Shown: one piece after another, positions 2 to 22,697 of the stretch
Position numbering within the stretch: the stretch's first letter is position 1
Layout of the letters: every line of letters begins with the position of its first letter
Assembly (NCBI GenBank): GCA_964565865.1
Contig: CAZMGM010000003.1
Location: 6,572 to 70,571, forward strand
DNA: 64,000 bases
Source: an uncultured Acidobacteriota bacterium
Lineage (GTDB): Bacteria; Acidobacteriota; UBA6911; RPQK01; CBDAPI01
Direction of reading: 5' to 3'
Notes under the pieces: generated by a model
What the model saw: the letters and a program-made list of their open reading frames with translations, nothing else
The model's database searches: none
What the model was told of the DNA's origin: nothing
Translations under genes and position numbers: made by a program

Positions 2-811
2 GATCGATTCGGGATTGATGTGGAAAAAATCGAGGTCCGGCATGGAGATACCGACCAGGTGGCCTTCGGCTGGGGAACCTACGGAAGTCGGAGCGCAGCG
101 GTAGGGGGAAGTGCCCTGGCGGGCTCAGCCGACAAGATTATTGAGAAGGGCAGGAAAATTACGGCCCATCTGCTGGAAGCTGCCGAGGAGGATGTCGTCT
201 TCGAGAATGGAACGTACTCCGTCAGAGGTGTGCCCGACAAGGCGCATACGATCGAGGAGATCGCCCTTCAGGCGCATCTTGCCCACAACCTTCCCGAGGG
301 CATGGAACCAGGACTGCGGGCGACCACTTTTTATGACCCGGCCAATTTCACTTATCCTTTTGGGAGCCACATAGCGGTCGTAGAGGTCGATCCGCAAACC
401 GGGAAGGTCGACCTGATCAGCTACACCGCCGTCGACGATGTTGGGAACGTGATCAACCCGATGATTGTGGACGGACAGCTGCACGGTGGGATTGCTCACG
501 GAATCGGGCAGTGTCTTTTGGAGGAAGCCGTTTACGATGAAAATGGCCAGCTCGTCTCGGGAGAGCTTCTGGACTACGCAGTTCCCAAGGCCCACCAGCT
601 GGTCTCATACAATCTTGATCGAACGGTCACCCCTTGCCCACACAATCCTCTGGGAGTCAAAGGATGTGGGGAAGCTGGTGCCATCGCTGCACCTGCGGCC
701 GTCGCCAATGCAGTGATCGACGCCTTGAAGCCTTTCGGGATTAAGCATCTGGATATGCCTTTGACGCCGGAAAAGGTGTGGAATGCAATCCAGGCTCAGG
801 GTGGGTCCTAA
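2..811 (+). CDS. Molybdopterin-dependent hydroxylase large subunit, C-terminal part (CoxL/XdhA family; 5' end lies outside the window)
   Basis: The ORF runs in frame from the window edge with no upstream stop. The C-terminal region (…[13 protein letters not shown]…[18 protein letters not shown]…) is typical of aldehyde-oxidase/xanthine-dehydrogenase Mo-binding subunits. It is followed directly by FAD-subunit and maturation genes. Confidence 0.8.
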
Positions 812-812
812 C

Positions 813-1679
813 ATGTATCCAGCTCGTTTCGAATATCTTCGTGCAAGCAACCTGGCTGAGGCCATCGATCTGGTGGGCGCCCACCCTGGCGCCAAGTTCC
901 TGGCAGGCGGGCACAGTCTGATTCCGATGATGAAACTCCGTCTAGCTGGGGCTCCCGTGCTGATTGATATCGGCCGCTTGCCCGAGCTGAAGGGCGTAGA
1001 ACTGGACGGTGACACCCTGAGAGTTGGCGCTTTGACGACTCATTCCGAGCTGGCTTCCAGTGAGATGGTACGGAGCGCCTGTTCTCTGCTCGCGGAAGCC
1101 GCCTCCCAGATTGCTGATCCGGCGGTCCGTAACAGGGGGACAATCGGGGGGAATCTTGCCCACAGTGATCCCGGCTCGGACCTTCCTGCGGTGGTACAGG
1201 TTGTAAATGCCAGGCTGGTGGTAACTGGACCCAGCGAATCGCGGGAGGTTGAGGCAACTGATTTTTTCCTCGATCTTATGATGAGCGATTTGAAGGAGGA
1301 TGAGATTCTCACGGCAATCGAAATACCAGTTTCCGCTGGCAGCTCGGGATCCTGTTATCTCAAGTTCGAGCATCCTGCCTCGGGCTATGCAGTGTGTGGT
1401 GCTGCAGCCCAGGTTGAGCTCGCTGAGGACGGGAATTGCCGCGCCGCCAGCCTAGGATTTAATGGTGTGGCCTCCACCCCAGTCAGAATCGGATCTATCG
1501 AGCGTGCTCTTTCTGGCAGCTTTCTCGGGGACGATGAGATCGATCGCGCCGTGGATGACACTCTCTCCTTTGCCGACCCAATGGGTGATATGTACGCCTC
1601 TGCTCCCTACCGGGTGCACCTGGCCCACGTCTACGGGAAGCGGGCTCTCAAGAAAGCCAGAGACCGGGCTCGCGGCTAG
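813..1679 (+). CDS. Molybdo-hydroxylase FAD-binding medium subunit (CoxM/XdhB-like)
   Basis: Starts MYPARFEY…, a typical CoxM-type N-terminus, and carries the FAD_binding_5-like motif GGHSLIPMMKLR. The ATG at 813 overlaps the upstream stop. Confidence 0.8.
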   Translation: MYPARFEYLRASNLAEAIDLVGAHPGAKFLAGGHSLIPMMKLRLAGAPVLIDIGRLPELKGVELDGDTLRVGALTTHSELASSEMVRSACSLLAEAASQIADPAVRNRGTIGGNLAHSDPGSDLPAVVQVVNARLVVTGPSESREVEATDFFLDLMMSDLKEDEILTAIEIPVSAGSSGSCYLKFEHPASGYAVCGAAAQVELAEDGNCRAASLGFNGVASTPVRIGSIERALSGSFLGDDEIDRAVDDTLSFADPMGDMYASAPYRVHLAHVYGKRALKKARDRARG

Positions 1680-1685
1680 CAGTCC

Positions 1686-2594
1686 GTGGCGAAAGTTCTG
1701 GAATTATCGATCGAGCAGATCCAAGCAGGCCTTGAGGACAACCTTTACGTTGCTGATCGGTCCCTGAGCGTAGCTCTGTTCCTGTGTCTCCGTCTGCACA
1801 AGCCGCTGTTTCTGGAGGGCGAAGCGGGGGTCGGCAAAACGGAAGTGGCCAAGGTTCTTTCCGACCTTCTGGGACGCAGACTCATCCGCCTGCAGTGCTA
1901 CGAGGGCCTGGATATCAGCAGTGCCGTTTATGAATGGAACTACAGTCATCAAATGCTTGAGATCCGTCTTCTGGAGGCGCGGAAAGGGAGGCTCGACCCC
2001 GGTACCCCTCCCGACCTATTTGGTCGCCGGTTCCTTCTCAAGCGACCCCTGCTGGATGCTATAGATCATCAAGAAGAACAACCACCGGTTTTGCTGATCG
2101 ACGAGCTCGATCGCGCGGATGAAGAGTTCGAGGCTTTCCTGCTCGAGATCCTGTCCGATTTCCAGGTCAGCATTCCTGAGATAGGGACGATCCGAGCTAA
2201 GGATCCTCCCATCGTGGTCGTTACTTCGAACCGGACCCGCGAAATCCACGATGCCCTCAAGCGACGGTGTCTGTATCATTGGATCGACTATCCTGGATTC
2301 GAAAAGGAACTCTCGATTGTGTCTTTACGTTGCCCCGATGCTTCCGGGGCACTGGCTTCCCAGGTGGTTCGCTTCGTACAGGAACTGCGCAAGGAGGATC
2401 TCTTCAAGATTCCCGGGATTGCGGAGACCCTGGACTGGGTGAACGCATTGGTCGCCCTGAACCAGAACTCGGTTACCCAGGAGGCAACTGACGACACTCT
2501 GGGTCTGCTTCTGAAGTACCAGGACGACGTGGAGCTGGTTCGGGGTGATGGGGCCAAAAAGATTCTAGGCAAAACAGCAGCCTCTTCGAACTGA
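1686..2594 (+). CDS. MoxR-family AAA+ ATPase (CoxD-like maturation factor)
   Basis: Walker A (GEAGVGKT) and Walker B (LLIDELDRAD) motifs. The GTG start and MoxR-like architecture are typical of coxD in CODH/XDH clusters. Confidence 0.8.
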   Translation: MAKVLELSIEQIQAGLEDNLYVADRSLSVALFLCLRLHKPLFLEGEAGVGKTEVAKVLSDLLGRRLIRLQCYEGLDISSAVYEWNYSHQMLEIRLLEARKGRLDPGTPPDLFGRRFLLKRPLLDAIDHQEEQPPVLLIDELDRADEEFEAFLLEILSDFQVSIPEIGTIRAKDPPIVVVTSNRTREIHDALKRRCLYHWIDYPGFEKELSIVSLRCPDASGALASQVVRFVQELRKEDLFKIPGIAETLDWVNALVALNQNSVTQEATDDTLGLLLKYQDDVELVRGDGAKKILGKTAASSN

Positions 2595-2650
2595 GAAAGT
2601 GTTTGGCTTGCTGTCTTACCAACGGTGGGCTTTTCTTGAGGCTGACTAAC

Positions 2651-3889
2651 ATGCCCGATGCCGACAAGATTCTCGAGAATGTCATCCTCTTCTGCAGGGC
2701 GCTGAGACACAAGGGACTTGGCGTGACTACAGGGCAGGTGCTAACGGTAGTAGAGGCCCTACGCCACATCTCGCTCACTCGGCGCCGGGATGTCAGGTCA
2801 GCTTTGAGGGCGATTCTGATCAATCGAAAAACGGATCTAGATGCTTTCCATGAAGCCTTTGATAACTTTTGGAATGCCTCTTCAAGAAAGAGGGGCGCGG
2901 AACTCGGAAAACTTCTCCGGCCAACCAGCCGCCAAATGAACACCGCTTTTCTCGACCAGGCAGTCAGCCAATCAGCATCTGACGGGGAGGAAGATGAGCC
3001 TGACACCAGGCTGAGAAGTACCCGCATCCGATACAGCAACCTGGAAAAGCTGCGCCGGCACGACTTTGCCCATTTGACCGCCGCCGAGCTGGAACAGGTG
3101 AAAGAGCTGATGCGCCAGTTTTCCTGGTCCCCGCCGCTCCGTAAGACGCGGCGCAAAATAGCTGCCAGACGAGGAACGGACCTTGATTTGAGGCGTCTCT
3201 TTCGAACTAGCCTGAGGTTTGAAGGGTGGCCGCTCTCGCTGACCTGGAGATCCCGGAAGATACGCTACCGACCGCTGGTTCTGATCTGCGATGTCAGTGG
3301 CTCGATGGAGCCTTACGCACGGATCCTCCTTCAATTCTCCTATGTTCTGAGCAGGGGATGGAAGCACGTCGAGGTCTTTCTTTTCAGCACTAGGCTCACC
3401 CGGATTACTCATCAACTTCGGCATAAAGACATCGACGTGGCCCTGGATCGCGCCGTCTCCATCGCCCCTGATTGGGGCGGAGGCACCCGGATCGGAGAAG
3501 CGCTGAGAGATTTCAACTACCGCTGGTCGCGCCGGGTACTCGGCGGCGGTCCAGTTGTCTTGATCATCAGCGACGGATGGGATCGGGGAGAAACCAATCG
3601 CCTGGCTGAGGAAATGGACCGTCTGCGCAGAAGTTGCCATACTCTGATCTGGCTGAATCCGCTTTTGGGTACTCCCGGGTACCAGCCTCTCACGCTAGGG
3701 ATTGTAGCGGCTCTGCCCAGGGTGGACTTCTTCTTGCCAGCGCACAATCTCCTGAGCCTGGAACGCCTGGGTTCTATGCTACAGGGAGTGTCCCTCGCCA
3801 CGCATCCATATCCGCGACCAGGAGACGCAGTGGGGGCGTCGTGGGGTGTCCGGGTCCGGCCACCTCAACTGAGGGGGCATTCTGCATGA
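2651..3889 (+). CDS. VWA-domain protein (CoxE-like)
   Basis: MIDAS motif DVSGSM near the C-terminal VWA domain. Position after the MoxR ATPase matches the coxD-coxE pairing. Start chosen at MPDADKIL. Confidence 0.75.
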   Translation: MPDADKILENVILFCRALRHKGLGVTTGQVLTVVEALRHISLTRRRDVRSALRAILINRKTDLDAFHEAFDNFWNASSRKRGAELGKLLRPTSRQMNTAFLDQAVSQSASDGEEDEPDTRLRSTRIRYSNLEKLRRHDFAHLTAAELEQVKELMRQFSWSPPLRKTRRKIAARRGTDLDLRRLFRTSLRFEGWPLSLTWRSRKIRYRPLVLICDVSGSMEPYARILLQFSYVLSRGWKHVEVFLFSTRLTRITHQLRHKDIDVALDRAVSIAPDWGGGTRIGEALRDFNYRWSRRVLGGGPVVLIISDGWDRGETNRLAEEMDRLRRSCHTLIWLNPLLGTPGYQPLTLGIVAALPRVDFFLPAHNLLSLERLGSMLQGVSLATHPYPRPGDAVGASWGVRVRPPQLRGHSA

Positions 3890-4497
3890 GTGTGTCGGGA
3901 ATTCTGCTGGCCGCAGGCCGGTCTCTTCGGTTTGGTGACGAAGCGAAGCAGCTGCTCGATTTCGACGGCGAGCCGCTGGTTCGAAGAATCGCCCGGGCAG
4001 CTTGCCTCTCCACACTCGGGGAGGTCGTCGTAGTGACGGGCTATCGAGCTTCCGAAATGGAGGCGGCCTTAGAGGGGCTGGGGGTGAGAACTATTCTCAA
4101 CCCCCGCTATCGAGATGGTTTGAGCACTTCCATTGGGGTGGGGATCCAAAACGTAACGACCTGTGCGGGGGGCGCACTCATTATGACCGCGGATCAGCCA
4201 TTTTTGAGTACGGAAGTGATGGACCAAATCGTTTCAGCGTATGCTGGCACGGGAGCTGCCATCGTGGGCCCGGTGTTCGAGGGCCGGCACGGCTCCCCGG
4301 TGTTGTTCGACCGCAGCCTGTTCGTCGAGCTCCTGGAACTGAGGAATGATGAGGGAGGTCGACAAATCATCCAGCGGAGCCCCGGCATGCTGGAAGCAGT
4401 GGAGCTCGGAAGTGCCCTGCCTCTGACCGACATCGATACGCGGGCGGAATACGAGCGCCTGCTCGGATACACTAGTGCGGCGAGTTATAAATTCTGA
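3886..4497 (+). CDS. MobA-like nucleotidyltransferase, probably molybdenum cofactor cytidylyltransferase (MocA)
   Basis: N-terminal motif LLAAGRSLRFG of the MobA/MocA family. Overlaps the upstream stop by 4 nt (ATGA). Confidence 0.7.
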   Translation: MSVSGILLAAGRSLRFGDEAKQLLDFDGEPLVRRIARAACLSTLGEVVVVTGYRASEMEAALEGLGVRTILNPRYRDGLSTSIGVGIQNVTTCAGGALIMTADQPFLSTEVMDQIVSAYAGTGAAIVGPVFEGRHGSPVLFDRSLFVELLELRNDEGGRQIIQRSPGMLEAVELGSALPLTDIDTRAEYERLLGYTSAASYKF

Positions 4498-4681
4498 AAC
4501 CTGGCCCTCCGCCGTCAGTCGCAGAATGATCCTCACACTTTCGGCCGGGTCCTTTGGGACTGGAGACTGGGAGAGAGCTTGCCGACAGCAAGCGGAGTGA
4601 ACCAGAATCGATGATGCGTTGTTCCAGCCCCGACGAGCGGGAGAAAGAAAAGGACTCCGATTGTTGAATCTGGTCGAATCG

Positions 4682-5713
4682 ATGACCTCGGCCTGGCAGC
4701 GGGGGGAGAGGGTCTTTCTGGCGACCGTCGTCAGTGTCGAGGGTTCTGCTTATCGCCACGAGGGAGCCAAGTTACTCGTTTTTGAAGATGGGAGCTACCA
4801 GGGAATGATTTCCGGAGGCTGCCTGGAACCCGAGATTGGCGCGACTGTGTCCCGGTTCGACGTTGGGGAGCCCATATATCGACACTTCGATCTCCGCGAT
4901 GACTCCGTATTCGGACTAGGGATGGGCTGCGGGGGCATGGTGGGAGTGTTCATTGAGCCGGCTCTGGACGGACCCGTCTGGAGATCCTGGCTGCAAACCT
5001 TCGAAAGAAACAGCCCCTCAGTTAGAGCCCTTGTCTATCAATCGGACGTCGCAGACGTCGCTGTCGGGGCATTCCTGGTGATCGAGGAGAACTGCCACAG
5101 GGGATCCACGGGCGACGAAGGCCTGGACCGGGAGGTCCTGGCGCGGTCCAGGGCGTTGCTTGAGAGCGATGGGGGAGCGAGCAGAGAACTAGATTTAGAG
5201 GGTCTCCGCCTGCTGCTGGATGTTTCTCTTGCGCCTCCCCGGCTGGTGATTTTCGGAGGTGGAGATGATGCTATCCCGGTAGCGAGGCTGGCCCATATGA
5301 CTGGTTTCGGGGTGACTGTCGTGGATGCCCGCGCCAGTTTCGTCACTTCGGAGCGGTTTCCCGAATCTCGCCTAATCATTGTGCCACCAGAGCAGTACAG
5401 CGAAGTAGGTCTGCGCCCGAAGGACTTGATCATCATCATGCATCATCACCTTGCAAAGGATGCGGTGGCCCTCGGTCAGGCCCTCCAGAATAGGTGCAAA
5501 TACATTGGTTTGCTGGGACCTCCGCATCGCTTTGAAAAAGTCAAAGAGCTGCTCGAACAGGACGCCCACCCATTCGGTGCTTTCGATTTTTCCCGGATCG
5601 ATACGCCGATAGGAGTCGATATCGGCGCTCGAGGACCGGAGGAAATTGCCCTCAGCATTATGGCCAAACTGGTTTCGGTCAGGCGGGGGAGCAGCCGGCT
5701 GGATCAAGTCTGA
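4682..5713 (+). CDS. XdhC/CoxF-family molybdo-enzyme maturation protein
   Basis: XdhC_CoxI-like N-terminus (VFLATVVSVEGSAYRHEGAKL) and a C-terminal Rossmann-like region (LVIFGGGDDA…). Last gene of the maturation cluster. Confidence 0.75.
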   Translation: MTSAWQRGERVFLATVVSVEGSAYRHEGAKLLVFEDGSYQGMISGGCLEPEIGATVSRFDVGEPIYRHFDLRDDSVFGLGMGCGGMVGVFIEPALDGPVWRSWLQTFERNSPSVRALVYQSDVADVAVGAFLVIEENCHRGSTGDEGLDREVLARSRALLESDGGASRELDLEGLRLLLDVSLAPPRLVIFGGGDDAIPVARLAHMTGFGVTVVDARASFVTSERFPESRLIIVPPEQYSEVGLRPKDLIIIMHHHLAKDAVALGQALQNRCKYIGLLGPPHRFEKVKELLEQDAHPFGAFDFSRIDTPIGVDIGARGPEEIALSIMAKLVSVRRGSSRLDQV

Positions 5714-18882: not shown

Positions 18883-19528
18883 CGGCCGACCCCAGAAGAG
18901 CCTCCGAGGCCCGTTCCGGGTGTGGCATCATGCCCAGGACATTACCTCCCGAATTGACGATCCCGGCGATGTTATTAAGGGAACCGTTGGGGTTGGCTTG
19001 TGGCGTTACCCTCCCGTCCCTATCGACATAACGAAAGATAACCTGGCCGTCTGCCTCCAGTGCATCCAGCTCAGCCGGCGGAAGGAAAAAGCTGCCATCG
19101 TTATGAGCGATCGGAATCTGGAGGCGTTCCCCCTCGCTTAGGCCAGAAGTAAAGGGGGTGTTCGCCTGTTCAGTACGAAGAAACACGGGTTGACAGAGAA
19201 ACTTCAGCCTGGCATTTCTGAGCAGAGCTCCGGGCAACAGACCCGCTTCCTGCAGGATCTGGAAACCGTTGCAGATGCCCAGGACCAGACCGCCCCGGTC
19301 TGCATGTTTCTTGACACTTTCCATGATCGGGGAAAACTTAGCGATGGCGCCGCTACGCAGGTAATCACCGTAGGAAAATCCCCCGGGAAGGATGATGATA
19401 TCCACATCCCGCAGGTTCAGATCCTGATGCCAGAGGAAAACCACCTCCCCTTCAGCGACATGCTTGATCACGAAATATGTGTCATGATCACAATTCGAGC
19501 CCGGAAAGACGACCACACCAAATTTCAC
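18827..19528 (-). CDS. purQ: Phosphoribosylformylglycinamidine synthase I (glutaminase subunit)
   Basis: Class I glutamine amidotransferase with the catalytic nucleophile in GICNGFQ. Confidence 0.9.
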
Positions 19529-19767
19529 GATATTTGCCGGATCTCAAAATCTTCAATAATGGGGTTTGAGAGTACGTCCGCGGCAATCTGCTCGCTGAGT
19601 CGGGTGACTACAGCCTCGTCTTCGTCGTCGATCTCAAGCTCGAAGTAACGGCCCTGGCGAACCTGGGATACTTCTTCATGCCCCAGTTTCTTGAGCGAGC
19701 GCTGGATCGCCTGACCCTGTGGATCTAGCACTTCTTGTTTCAGCTTGACAACGATCTGGACCTTCAT
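19525..19767 (-). CDS. purS: Phosphoribosylformylglycinamidine synthase subunit PurS
   Basis: About 80-aa PurS fold, [29 protein letters not shown]…; start at ATG 19767. Confidence 0.85.
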
Positions 19768-19957
19768 GAGAAATGCAGCCCCTCCTGTCGCTTTCGCGAA
19801 CGCGGTCATTCTAGCAGTCCATGGTGATAGTCGCTAGCGGGCGCAAACCCTCCTCGCCGATGCGCTTCGACGTGGTCTGCGTCGGTTCGCCTTGCATCTG
19901 GGACCACGGCGCCCGTAGCGCGACCCTCGGGACTTTCACCACGGGCTGCTGACACTA
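19768..19957 (-). promoter_or_regulatory. Structured ~190-nt leader upstream of purS; candidate cis-regulatory RNA of undetermined class
   Basis: GC-rich non-coding spacer between the BMC-P stop and the purS ATG. It has long-range complementary segments (CGGGCGC…GCGCCCG; CGUGGUC…GACCACG). The only ORF in it (19806..20051, minus) is low-complexity. Confidence 0.3.
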
Positions 19958-20233
19958 TTAGGTGTCGAGCAGATCCACCTGATCCACTACTCCCACGACC
20001 GCCGCGTCCACCGGTGTGTAAAACTCCCCCAGGACGTTCATGGCCGCCCATCCATCGAGGGTGCAGAGCACTCGGTCGCCCACGCCGGAGTCGGCTCCAT
20101 CGATGGCAAGGACCTGTTCGCCACGCTCCTCTCCTTTGGGAGTAAGAGGCTGAACGAGAAGAAGTTTCTGTCCCTCGAAACAGGAATCCTTCTTAGTAGA
20201 AAAAAGCTGATCGACTACTCTTCCGATGATCAT
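19958..20233 (-). CDS. BMC vertex protein (BMC-P, EutN/CcmL family), paralog 3
   Basis: 91 aa with the PF03319-like pattern MIIGRVVDQLFSTKKD…GQKLLLVQP…VLAIDGADSGVGDRVL…VVGVVDQVDL. 4-nt overlap with the upstream paralog. Confidence 0.85.
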   Translation of the reverse strand: MIIGRVVDQLFSTKKDSCFEGQKLLLVQPLTPKGEERGEQVLAIDGADSGVGDRVLCTLDGWAAMNVLGEFYTPVDAAVVGVVDQVDLLDT

Positions 20234-20508
20234 GTCGGGGAGCCCGGAAAGTTGGCCCTATCCAAAATTCCGACAATCGAGCAGTCGGATGGCACACGAT
20301 CCGGGTACCAGGGGAAGCTTCCCTCTTTCCCGGTTACGTAAAAAACAAGTTCCCCTGGTCCTGCCCCCACCGAGTCAAGGGCTACGCGGATGGGTCCCAC
20401 GGGATGACCTGTACGGTCGATCGGCCTGACCAGGAGGATTTTGTGGCCGGTCAGTGACGGATCCTTGATGGTAGTGACAACCGTTCCGACGATTTCGCCC
20501 AGGTTCAT
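20230..20508 (-). CDS. BMC vertex protein (BMC-P, EutN/CcmL family), paralog 2
   Basis: 92 aa, MNLGEIVGTVVTTIKDPSLTGHKILLVRP…ALDSVGAGPGELV…CSIVGILD. 4-nt overlaps on both sides. Confidence 0.85.
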   Translation of the reverse strand: MNLGEIVGTVVTTIKDPSLTGHKILLVRPIDRTGHPVGPIRVALDSVGAGPGELVFYVTGKEGSFPWYPDRVPSDCSIVGILDRANFPGSPT

Positions 20509-20792
20509 AGTTTGGACGTGGGGGTTCCATCGAAGTCGACGGCGTCGACGATTCCGACAATGGAGCAGTCCACCGGATGATCGGTCAATCCGTTGGCCAT
20601 CCGGGCTGAACTGCCTCGTACGATGATGACGGTCTCGCCTGCTCCGGCGCCGACTGTGTCGACCGCCACATGGTACCCGGAGGGATTCCCCGTCTCCGGA
20701 TCGATGGTCTTAACGATGAGTAGCTTTTTCCCCTGGAGCTTCTCGTCCTTACGGGTGGCGACTACGGTCCCGGCAACTTTACCTAGAAGCAT
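20505..20792 (-). CDS. BMC vertex protein (BMC-P, EutN/CcmL family), paralog 1
   Basis: 95 aa, MLLGKVAGTVVATRKDEKLQGKKLLIVK…AVDTVGAGAGETVIIV…CSIVGIVD. Confidence 0.85.
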   Translation of the reverse strand: MLLGKVAGTVVATRKDEKLQGKKLLIVKTIDPETGNPSGYHVAVDTVGAGAGETVIIVRGSSARMANGLTDHPVDCSIVGIVDAVDFDGTPTSKL

Positions 20793-20830
20793 GGGTGCTC
20801 AGAACCTTCTTTTCGGAATCGGGAAGTTGG

Positions 20831-21118
20831 TTATTTAGGGATGATGGGAAGACGTTCATCCAGGCTCGAATGGGGTCGCGGTATTACGTGAACGCTTACT
20901 AGCTCTCCTACCCGTCGAGCTGCGGCAGCTCCTGCGTCGGTGGCGGCTTTGACCGCGGCTACCTCTCCTCGAACGATGGCTGTCACGAGGCCGCTGCCGA
21001 TCTTTTCATAGCCAACCAGGGTAACCTTGGCAGCCTTAACCATCGCGTCGGCGGCTTCAACCATGGCAATGAGACCCTTCGTCTCTACCATTCCCAAAGC
21101 TTCCAGCGAATCGGCCAT
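20831..21118 (-). CDS. BMC hexameric shell protein (BMC-H, PduA/EutM/CcmK family)
   Basis: Canonical PF00936 sequence: [54 protein letters not shown]…VHVIPRPH. Confidence 0.9.
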
Positions 21119-21151
21119 TTCCGGTAGTGTCTCCCAGGATTCTGGACCTGC

Positions 21152-21985
21152 TTATCGGTCCCTGTTCATCTCCAGTACAACTCTCTCAACGATCTCATCG
21201 ATTTCCCGCGGAGATAACGTGAGAGGGTGTTCGCCGTGGGCAGTTACGGGACAGTCAGTCTGCCGCGAAACTGGAGCATTTATACCATACTTCCCACTGA
21301 CGTCAAAAAGTTTGTCCACAGATTCCCGAGTGAGTAAACTCTGCTTTCCAAGGATGCGTGTCAGTAAAGAGATCTTGGCAAAATGTTCGAGAATTTCCAT
21401 GCGGAAAAAGGCCTTTTGCAGATCCGATCCCATAGTGATTGCGCCGTGATTGGCAAGCAGGATTGCGTTGTGTTCGGGGACTAGATCAGTGAGGCTGTTG
21501 GCCAGTTCATCGGTGGAAGGAGTCCCGTAGGGCGCGATCGGGACACAGCCCAGAGTGAGTACAACCTCGGGCATAAGGGCTTCACGGAGTGGAAGACCGG
21601 CAACCGCGTGTGCGGTTCCGTACACGGGATGTCCGTGACAGACCCCCGTCACGTCAGGACGGCCCCGGTAGACTAGCACGTGCATTTTGATTTCACTGGA
21701 AACTCCGCGCCCTCCTTCCAGCTGGTGTCCCTCAAGGTCAGTTGTAACCAGGTCTTCAGGCTGCAGATCTCCCTTGCACAAGCCTGTCGGAGTGGCAAGC
21801 AGCCGTTCTCCCATTCGGATCGACAGGTTGCCTTCGTTGGCGCAGATCAGGTCTTTGGCATACATTCTCCGGCCGATCTCACAGATGAGTTCCCGCGCTT
21901 GCCATTCGATCATCATCAGCTCCGGGTTCCGAGCTCCCAGTTCCGGGCTGGCACTGGTCGTCACTCCCGCCATTACAGGTTCCAC
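21152..21985 (-). CDS. Class II aldolase (fuculose-/rhamnulose-phosphate aldolase-like) with a C-terminal encapsulation-peptide-like amphipathic helix
   Basis: Aldolase_II motifs: Zn-ligand histidines in VCHGHPV and the conserved LLANHGAITMG. About 40 aa past the domain end there is a linker followed by an amphipathic helix (LSPREIDEIVERVVLEM). Alternative start MM at 21913. Confidence 0.8.
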   Translation of the reverse strand: MEPVMAGVTTSASPELGARNPELMMIEWQARELICEIGRRMYAKDLICANEGNLSIRMGERLLATPTGLCKGDLQPEDLVTTDLEGHQLEGGRGVSSEIKMHVLVYRGRPDVTGVCHGHPVYGTAHAVAGLPLREALMPEVVLTLGCVPIAPYGTPSTDELANSLTDLVPEHNAILLANHGAITMGSDLQKAFFRMEILEHFAKISLLTRILGKQSLLTRESVDKLFDVSGKYGINAPVSRQTDCPVTAHGEHPLTLSPREIDEIVERVVLEMNRDR

Positions 21986-22070
21986 GTTCTACGAACCTTC
22001 AACCTGTAACTGTCAACTGTCAACCTTCAACCTTCAACTGTCAACCAGTAACCGGTAAGCCAGTCCCAGA
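21986..22070. repeat. Heptanucleotide tandem repeat (about 9 units, consensus AACYKTC), copy 1 of a dispersed family
   Basis: gaaccttc|aacctgt|aactgtc|aactgtc|aaccttc|aaccttc|aactgtc|aaccagt|aaccggt, in the divergent region between the aldolase and ruvA. Confidence 0.7.
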
Positions 22071-22088
22071 GCAGTCCGGTTCGCTATA

Positions 22089-22697
22089 ATGCAACCTATG
22101 CTTGCCCGACTCAGGGGAACGCTGACGGAGAAGTCGGCCGGCCAGATTATCATCGATGTGAACGGGGTAGGATACGAGGTGTTCATCCCTTTCTCCACTT
22201 ACTATGAACTGGCCGAACCGGGAGACAGAGTCACGCTTCACATTTACACTCATGTTAAAGAAAACGATCTGAGCCTTTATGGATTCTCGACTCAACGGGA
22301 AAAGGATCTTTTCAATCTGTTGATCCAAATTTCCGGCATCGGCCCCAAGCTGGGAGTGACTATTCTCTCGGGACTTCCAGCAGAGGAACTGGCCGAAGCG
22401 GTCGTGGCAGGTGACCTGGTGCGCTTGCATTCTATTCCGGGGGTGGGAAAGAAGACGGCAGAGCGGATCATTCTCGAGCTCAAGGAGAAGCTCGACCGGT
22501 TCCTTCCGGAGAGGTCCTCACAAGATGCTGCAAGGTCTGGCAGCGGGATGGGCGGCGACGTGGTCTCTGCCCTGGTTAATCTTGGTTACCAGAAGGCAGC
22601 TGCCGAGAAAGCCGTCAGCGCCATCAATAGGGAAGGGACGAATTGTGGCTTTCAGGCCCTCTTGAGGGGGGCTTTGAGTCACCTTTCTGGCTCTTAG
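22089..22697 (+). CDS. ruvA: Holliday junction DNA helicase RuvA
   Basis: RuvA N-terminal OB domain and HhH motifs (LIQISGIGPKLGVTIL; LHSIPGVGKKTAERI). Confidence 0.9.
   Translation: MQPMLARLRGTLTEKSAGQIIIDVNGVGYEVFIPFSTYYELAEPGDRVTLHIYTHVKENDLSLYGFSTQREKDLFNLLIQISGIGPKLGVTILSGLPAEELAEAVVAGDLVRLHSIPGVGKKTAERIILELKEKLDRFLPERSSQDAARSGSGMGGDVVSALVNLGYQKAAAEKAVSAINREGTNCGFQALLRGALSHLSGS

Follow-up and report, generated by a model that had tools for sequence, protein, structure and literature searches.

A five-gene locus with three BMC-P paralogs in an uncultured Acidobacteriota bacterium, very probably of the catalogued Acidobacteria-type (ACI) microcompartment

In bacterial microcompartment (BMC) loci, BMC-P genes most commonly occur singly or as three paralogs, the latter being called the 'BMC-P triplet' (Sutter et al. 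2021, PMC8217296). According to the same catalogue a triplet is composed of one member of the grey clade, one of the orange clade and one of a canonical clade (green, blue or purple), and its authors suggested 'an additional functional role'; according to a 2024 paper it 'remains unknown' why there should be more than one BMC-P paralog in an organism (PMC11585597). One catalogued type, ACI, is restricted to Acidobacteria. A PF00596 aldolase that bears a C-terminal encapsulation peptide and is said to be closest to the HO/MIC3 aldolase belongs to its main locus, for which a 2-hydroxyacid dehydrogenase (PF00389/PF02826) and three proteins of unknown function are listed as well, with the aldehyde dehydrogenase, which has an encapsulation peptide too, lying on a satellite locus (PMC8217296, Supplementary Data 2). 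Solibacter and a marine Solibacterales MAG are typed as ACI there, and one entry of the catalogue's BMC-P tree is a 95-aa green-clade (fadedGreen3) protein from the ACI main locus of a marine Solibacterales MAG (PMC8217296). An earlier survey recorded one BMC-H, three BMC-T and three BMC-P genes in Haliangium ochraceum, and loci in which BMC-P genes outnumber BMC-H genes among the Planctomycetes/Verrucomicrobia (PVM) microcompartments (Axen et al. 2014, PMC4207490). The alpha-carboxysome paralogs CsoS4A and CsoS4B, expressed together, assemble into heteropentamers (PMC11606499).

We analysed a stretch of 64,000 nucleotides from an uncultured Acidobacteriota bacterium (the window). Between ruvA and the purS-purQ-purL operon it carries five genes in an uninterrupted run on the minus strand, with no intervening gene:

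21152..21985, minus strand: class II aldolase (PF00596), putatively the signature or cargo enzyme; longest ORF 277 aa
21155..21223, minus strand: C-terminal aldolase tail, LTLSPREIDEIVERVVLEMNRDR; candidate encapsulation peptide, an amphipathic helix after a linker of about 20 aa
20831..21118, minus strand: BMC-H hexamer shell protein, 95 aa (PF00936, 102 bits)
20505..20792, minus strand: BMC-P paralog 1 (P1), 95 aa (PF03319, 104.6 bits)
20230..20508, minus strand: BMC-P paralog 2 (P2), 92 aa (PF03319, 83.5 bits); its start overlaps the P1 stop
19958..20233, minus strand: BMC-P paralog 3 (P3), 91 aa (PF03319, 78.8 bits); its start overlaps the P2 stop

The tandem arrangement of three BMC-P genes, which a preliminary description of this DNA had reported, is real: P1, P2 and P3 are full-length ORFs that each cover positions 1-83 of the 83 in the PF03319 (EutN_CcmL) profile, for which the Pfam gathering score is 25 bits. 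All three are read on the minus strand, from 20792 to 20505 (P1), from 20508 to 20230 (P2) and from 20233 to 19958 (P3). The 4-nt stop/start overlaps given in that description are likewise seen in the sequence at both junctions: ATGA on the coding strand (TCAT on the plus strand) occupies 20505-20508 and 20230-20233, and each downstream ATG opens a tetranucleotide whose last three bases are the preceding TGA. The BMC-H gene does lie upstream of P1, although the gap measures 38 nt and not the 39 nt claimed. A tblastn search of the whole 64-kb window returned no further BMC-H or BMC-P gene, which bears out the single BMC-H for three BMC-P. Apart from the BMC cassette, the approximately 25 window ORFs that were scanned are housekeeping genes. 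The left end of the window (20-5713) has a cluster of the CO-dehydrogenase/xanthine-dehydrogenase accessory type with no relation to the BMC locus; it comprises an FAD-binding subunit, an AAA MoxR-like ATPase, a VWA CoxE-like protein, a MobA-like transferase and XdhC. Proteins of the window are also found on marine metagenome contigs.

The five-gene cassette is very probably the core main locus of an ACI metabolosome, with P1-P3 as its BMC-P triplet. It resembles ACI in its acidobacterial host, its PF00596 aldolase with an encapsulation-peptide-like tail, its one BMC-H with KAA and PRPH motifs, its three adjacent BMC-P genes, of which one is canonical, and a main locus that is without aldehyde dehydrogenase (PMC8217296). 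It differs from the catalogued type in its placement between ruvA and purS-purQ-purL, in the ATGA overlap at both BMC-P junctions, and in what is missing beside the shell genes. The 2-hydroxyacid dehydrogenase was absent from the window by tblastn and Pfam scans, and neither it nor the three unknown proteins of the catalogue are found there, which speaks against a match to the ACI core. The dehydrogenase appears to be accessory and not defining, because the Solibacter and Solibacterales loci are still labelled ACI; it adjoins the cassette in one of 80 related loci (L007). The three-pentamer layout is real and conserved, and it is not new, having been catalogued in 2021, for ACI and for many other types of microcompartment (Sutter et al.); the locus adds one more instance to a catalogued type and represents no new kind of system. 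This also removes the premise on which the 3:1 ratio of BMC-P to BMC-H had been presented as an inverted, anomalous one, since triplets are among the commonest patterns (PMC8217296); given the triplet pattern of the 2021 catalogue and the ratios of Axen et al. (2014), 3:1 is the norm for the ACI type.

The distribution of the cassette bears on its assignment. A scan of one genome per species with a profile of P3 orthologues gave 80 loci, nearly all of them in Acidobacteriota MAGs (Bryobacterales, Terriglobia, Vicinamibacteria and others), and the named protein matches are from Acidobacteriota. Two loci with the full aldolase-H-P1-P2-P3 cassette, L015 and L049, come from MAGs labelled Acidimicrobiia and Verrucomicrobiia; their occurrence outside Acidobacteriota could be due to mis-binning or horizontal transfer. 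That the cassette is a PVM fucose/rhamnose microcompartment and not ACI is very improbable. Solibacter loci were labelled PVM-like in 2014 (PMC4207490), but the 2021 catalogue types both Solibacter and the marine Solibacterales MAG as ACI (PMC8217296), and the relatives of the cassette are almost all acidobacterial. In PVM loci, moreover, genes for an aldehyde dehydrogenase (AldDh) and an acetate kinase are accompanied by those for a dehydrogenase and a DeoR regulator, whereas AldDh, PTAC, acetate kinase, lactate/malate dehydrogenase and DeoR regulator were all missing among the approximately 25 window ORFs scanned with Pfam and the gene calls of L001. The lack of AldDh and PTAC among the scanned window ORFs also counts against the ACI assignment, in which an aldehyde-dehydrogenase pathway is putative. 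It is consistent with a satellite location.

The aldolase matches PF00596 with 150.8 bits, the domain ending near residue 206. Residues E94, H113, H115 and H176 (273-aa numbering) are invariant in an alignment with five relatives, and fit what we take to be the catalytic glutamate and the zinc-binding histidine triad of FucA-type aldolases. Relatives begin at MIEW or MLREW, and because of the MIEW start the true start of the window's aldolase is probably M24 or M25 (nt 21916 or 21913), which would give a protein of 253-254 aa like those of the relatives. The tail contains the highest 14-residue helical hydrophobic moment of the protein (0.65, rank 1 of 260); the corresponding tails also rank first in L086, L087 and L007, and the spacing of the hydrophobic residues holds its position in relatives of 37-92% identity. 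We regard this tail as a putative encapsulation peptide, one that would draw the aldolase inside the shell; an aldehyde dehydrogenase whose gene lies in another part of the genome would then process the aldehyde product.

Upstream of the aldolase, the intergenic region towards ruvA (21994-22054, continuing to about 21920) contains approximately eight tandem heptads GTTGA(C/A)(A/G) (TRF period 7). A second heptad series, (G/C)(T/C)GGAAC, follows this array and extends into the beginning of the long aldolase ORF, which also argues for the later methionine as the start. The GGTTGAAAGTTGAAAGTTGAAGG array and the GGAAC series are found upstream of the aldolase in L086-L088 as well, and they may be regulator-binding arrays. 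Two other relatives have a malic enzyme of approximately 800-850 aa directly upstream of the aldolase (L006 3834-6248 and L007 2612-5167) that is not in the window; its Pfam domains lie in the C-terminal half only, leaving a long N-terminal region without assignment. L007 also has an ACT-domain protein upstream of the aldolase, and the window has none.

The three BMC-P paralogs of the window are clearly diverged from one another, as had been claimed, with identities of 49% (P1-P2), 36% (P1-P3) and 27% (P2-P3). Orthologues in a large protein collection are 67-100% (P1), 54-100% (P2) and 50-92% (P3) identical, all well above the values between paralogs. Each of the 261 listed matches has its top score with the paralog used to find it, with minimum margins over the other paralogs of 58.1 bits for P1, 32.6 bits for P2 and 11.5 bits for P3; P3 has 714 homologues, and among those listed 120 of 120 score best against P3. 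The same pattern holds within genomes. For 69 matched sets of the genes, one being the window's own cassette and 68 coming from genome loci, the identity between paralogs of the same genome is 35-41%, and the mean identity within orthogroups is 71% for P1, 54% for P2, 65% for P3 and 86% for BMC-H. The order aldolase-H-P1-P2-P3, all on the same strand, is kept in approximately 70 of the 80 loci.

Closer relatives are provided by three related metagenome contigs, L086-L088, which have the identical layout ruvB-ruvA <- -> aldolase-H-P1-P2-P3-purS-purQ-purL. Relative to these, dN/dS (Nei-Gojobori) is 0.10-0.15 for P1, 0.07-0.14 for P2 and 0.05-0.08 for P3, with 0.02-0.05 for BMC-H and 0.05-0.07 for the neighbouring purS, so that P3 is about as low as purS. 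Values of 0.05-0.15 in all three indicate that none of P1-P3 is decaying. Evidence that two of the three were recent duplicates turning into pseudogenes had been named in the preliminary description as what would refute its claim. The probability of that reading is negligible: the ORFs of P1-P3 are intact, every paralog has its own orthologues across orders of Acidobacteriota, the paralogs are 27-49% identical whereas orthologues reach 92%, and dN/dS is low throughout. The triplication is very probably ancient, older than the split of the sampled Acidobacteriota lineages, with a fixed order and purifying selection on each copy.

The genes flanking the cassette recur in relatives. The purS-purQ-purL genes follow P3 in the window, in L006, in L007 and in L086-L088 (window span 19525-22697), and ruvA is adjacent to the cassette or within a few kb of it in many loci, including those of distant Acidobacteriota (several Terriglobia loci).

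Differences between the paralogs are concentrated at residues ~56-74, and the loops at 61-70 are specific to each orthogroup. P1 is of the canonical type, with the edge motif GAGAGE and the loop GSSAR; residues G60-S-S-A-R-M-A are invariant or nearly so in 69 orthologues. P2 retains the edge motif as GAGPGE, and its residues 60-69 read GKEGSFPWYP. The motif G(K/R)E(G/A)SFPW.P is nearly invariant among its orthologues, with G60, E62, F65, P66, W67 and P69 invariant in 21 of them, and the loop consensus of the P2 orthogroup is G-(R/K)-E-A-S-F-P-(F/W)-(L/Y)-P. P3 is the most divergent, with the edge motif DSGVGD, in which the acidic residue is retained, and the loop GWAAMNVLG; the loop consensus of its orthogroup is G-(F/W/Y)-S-A-M-T-(A/S)-V-G-R-P. 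Common to all three orthogroups are T13, K15, D45, G50, E/D53, G60, D75, G80 and D83, with G50 present in 68-69 and E/D53 in 67-69 of the 69 sequences of every orthogroup. Going by the GSSAR loop, P1 would be the canonical-clade member of the triplet; P2 and P3 would take the grey and orange places, by elimination only.

The preliminary description had attributed to P2 an insertion, GKEGSFPWYPDRVPSD, that the other two lack. In a MAFFT alignment this segment pairs column by column and gap-free with GSSARMANGLTDHPVD of P1 and GWAAMNVLGEFYTPVD of P3. It is a substituted loop of unchanged length, paralog-specific and conserved. An insertion is rejected also by the alignment of P1-P3 to solved pentamers over residues 1-89, which contains no extra segment. 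An exhaustive profile search with P2 orthologues returned 1041 cluster representatives at E <= 1e-10, and an (R/K)EA(S/A) loop takes the place of GSSAR in many of the best 150 of these 1041. The P2 type therefore seems to form a large clade and to be more than a local peculiarity.

Among solved structures, P1 comes closest to 5V74, the shell pentamer of H. ochraceum (76 bits over residues 1-89, E = 1.7e-20). P2 and P3 were modelled with AlphaFold as single chains. The P2 model (pLDDT 81) aligns to pentamer chains of CcmL, EutN and 5V74 with TM scores of 0.75-0.77; its loop, of low confidence with a mean pLDDT of 57 over residues 61-70, contains a three-residue turn only and no long helix. The P3 model (pLDDT 92) aligns to GrpN, CcmL and 5V74 with TM scores of 0.85-0.86 and has a helix at residues 61-68. 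As predicted monomers, then, P2 and P3 match the subunit fold of solved vertex pentamers.

How these proteins would meet the hexamer can be read from motifs. The window's BMC-H has the sequences AMVKAAKV and VIPRPHSS, which contain KAA and PRPH, described as inter-tile or interface motifs of BMC-H (PMC13370225). The G-x-G-(E/D) edge motif of pentamers contacts the KAA lysine and the PRPH arginine of BMC-H, its acidic residue being the one that pairs with the arginine (review, PMC13370225). In the arrangement we propose, BMC-H would tile the facets and pentamers of P1-P3 would occupy the vertices, each docking through its edge motif, kept in P1-P3, onto KAA and PRPH. On the best reading of the sequences, all three paralogs would serve as vertex subunits of the shell that have become differentiated in a surface loop. 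The idea of specialised functions put forward in the preliminary description fares accordingly in part: distinct, conserved and probably co-translated paralogs fit some specialisation, but the supposed rarity of the arrangement, from which the idea had been argued, falls away.

It may be asked whether P1 is the real vertex cap, with P2 and P3 in non-capping roles, perhaps that of adaptors with conserved loops that recognise cargo, encapsulation peptides or an assembly factor. Only P1 keeps the canonical GSSAR loop, and it ranks top against Pfam and the solved vertex proteins, while the invariant, aromatic and proline-rich FPW.P of P2 is typical of a binding epitope; the related (R/K)EA(S/A) loop in many of the best 150 of the 1041 representatives and the 'additional functional role' suggested by the catalogue authors (PMC8217296) point the same way. 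Nevertheless we consider this distinctly unlikely, as the hexamer-docking motif G-x-G-(E/D), a C-terminal (I/V)(V/I)D and the full pentamer-subunit fold are all retained in P2 and P3, which argues that both are still in the shell.

Two multi-pentamer systems help to place the cassette. The cassette is like that of H. ochraceum in having one BMC-H and three BMC-P, in that P1 has its closest solved relative there (5V74), and in that two of the H. ochraceum BMC-P genes are accompanied by an aldolase gene in a satellite locus (PMC8217296); it differs in that H. ochraceum has three BMC-T, is a myxobacterial host and splits its genes between a main and a satellite locus. CsoS4A and CsoS4B of the alpha-carboxysome are also adjacent BMC-P paralogs that are always found together, but they are a pair and not a triplet, both fall in one clade of the BMC-P tree (PMC8217296), and their organelle is anabolic.

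The CsoS4A/CsoS4B heteropentamer (PMC11606499) is the precedent for a further reading, in which P1-P3 are obligate partners in mixed pentamers and their adjacency and stop/start overlap deliver a fixed proportion. The order P1-P2-P3 is fixed in approximately 70 genomes with very tight spacing, the ATGA overlaps have been retained within the lineage of the window, and core residues are common to all three orthogroups. Five subunits, however, are not equally divisible among three paralogs, and many relatives have gaps of 20-560 nt between cassette genes, so that overlaps are not universal. The H. ochraceum shell, moreover, is said to assemble with a single BMC-P type. On balance we hold obligate mixing to be unlikely. 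A related and equally tentative proposal, which we put forward as a possibility with the odds against it, is that the loops G(K/R)E(G/A)SFPW.P of P2 and G(F/W)SAMT.VGRP of P3 might be specificity determinants, either for a defined mixed pentamer or for docking of cargo or an assembly factor at the vertex, with coupling setting the stoichiometry. If so, the cassette would be among the smallest natural systems in which to ask why triplets exist. Being compact and having conserved, paralog-specific loops, it would in any case be a convenient minimal construct for homo- versus hetero-pentamer assembly.

The spacing of the genes is informative on coupling. Where H, P1, P2 and P3 could all be called cleanly (72 loci, of which 68 are genome loci and four are copies of the window sequence), intergene distances are mostly -7 to +10 nt. 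Both ATGA overlaps are kept in L086-L088 at dS values of 0.5-1.7, and their retention despite diverged synonymous sites suggests more than chance. No recognisable Shine-Dalgarno sequence lies in the 15 nt before the starts of P2 and P3. With no obvious ribosome-binding site and starts inside the preceding stop, P2 and P3 of this marine lineage are probably translated by termination-reinitiation, in a roughly fixed proportion to P1.

A promoter and terminator scan of 19500-22300 gave no sigma-70 promoter-like site and no minus-strand terminator, so that read-through from P3 into the purine operon is possible. The spacer between P3 and purS (19810-19957, minus strand) contains approximately 130-150 nt that are missing from close relatives, in which the spacers are 50-60 nt, and it folds to -64 kcal/mol (z = -2.5). 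A regulatory RNA in this spacer was considered and rejected, as it matched no Rfam family and the Rfam search of the whole window gave three tRNAs only. Directly before purS, a box CTAGAATGACCGCGTTCGCGAA is conserved in the window, L086 and L087.
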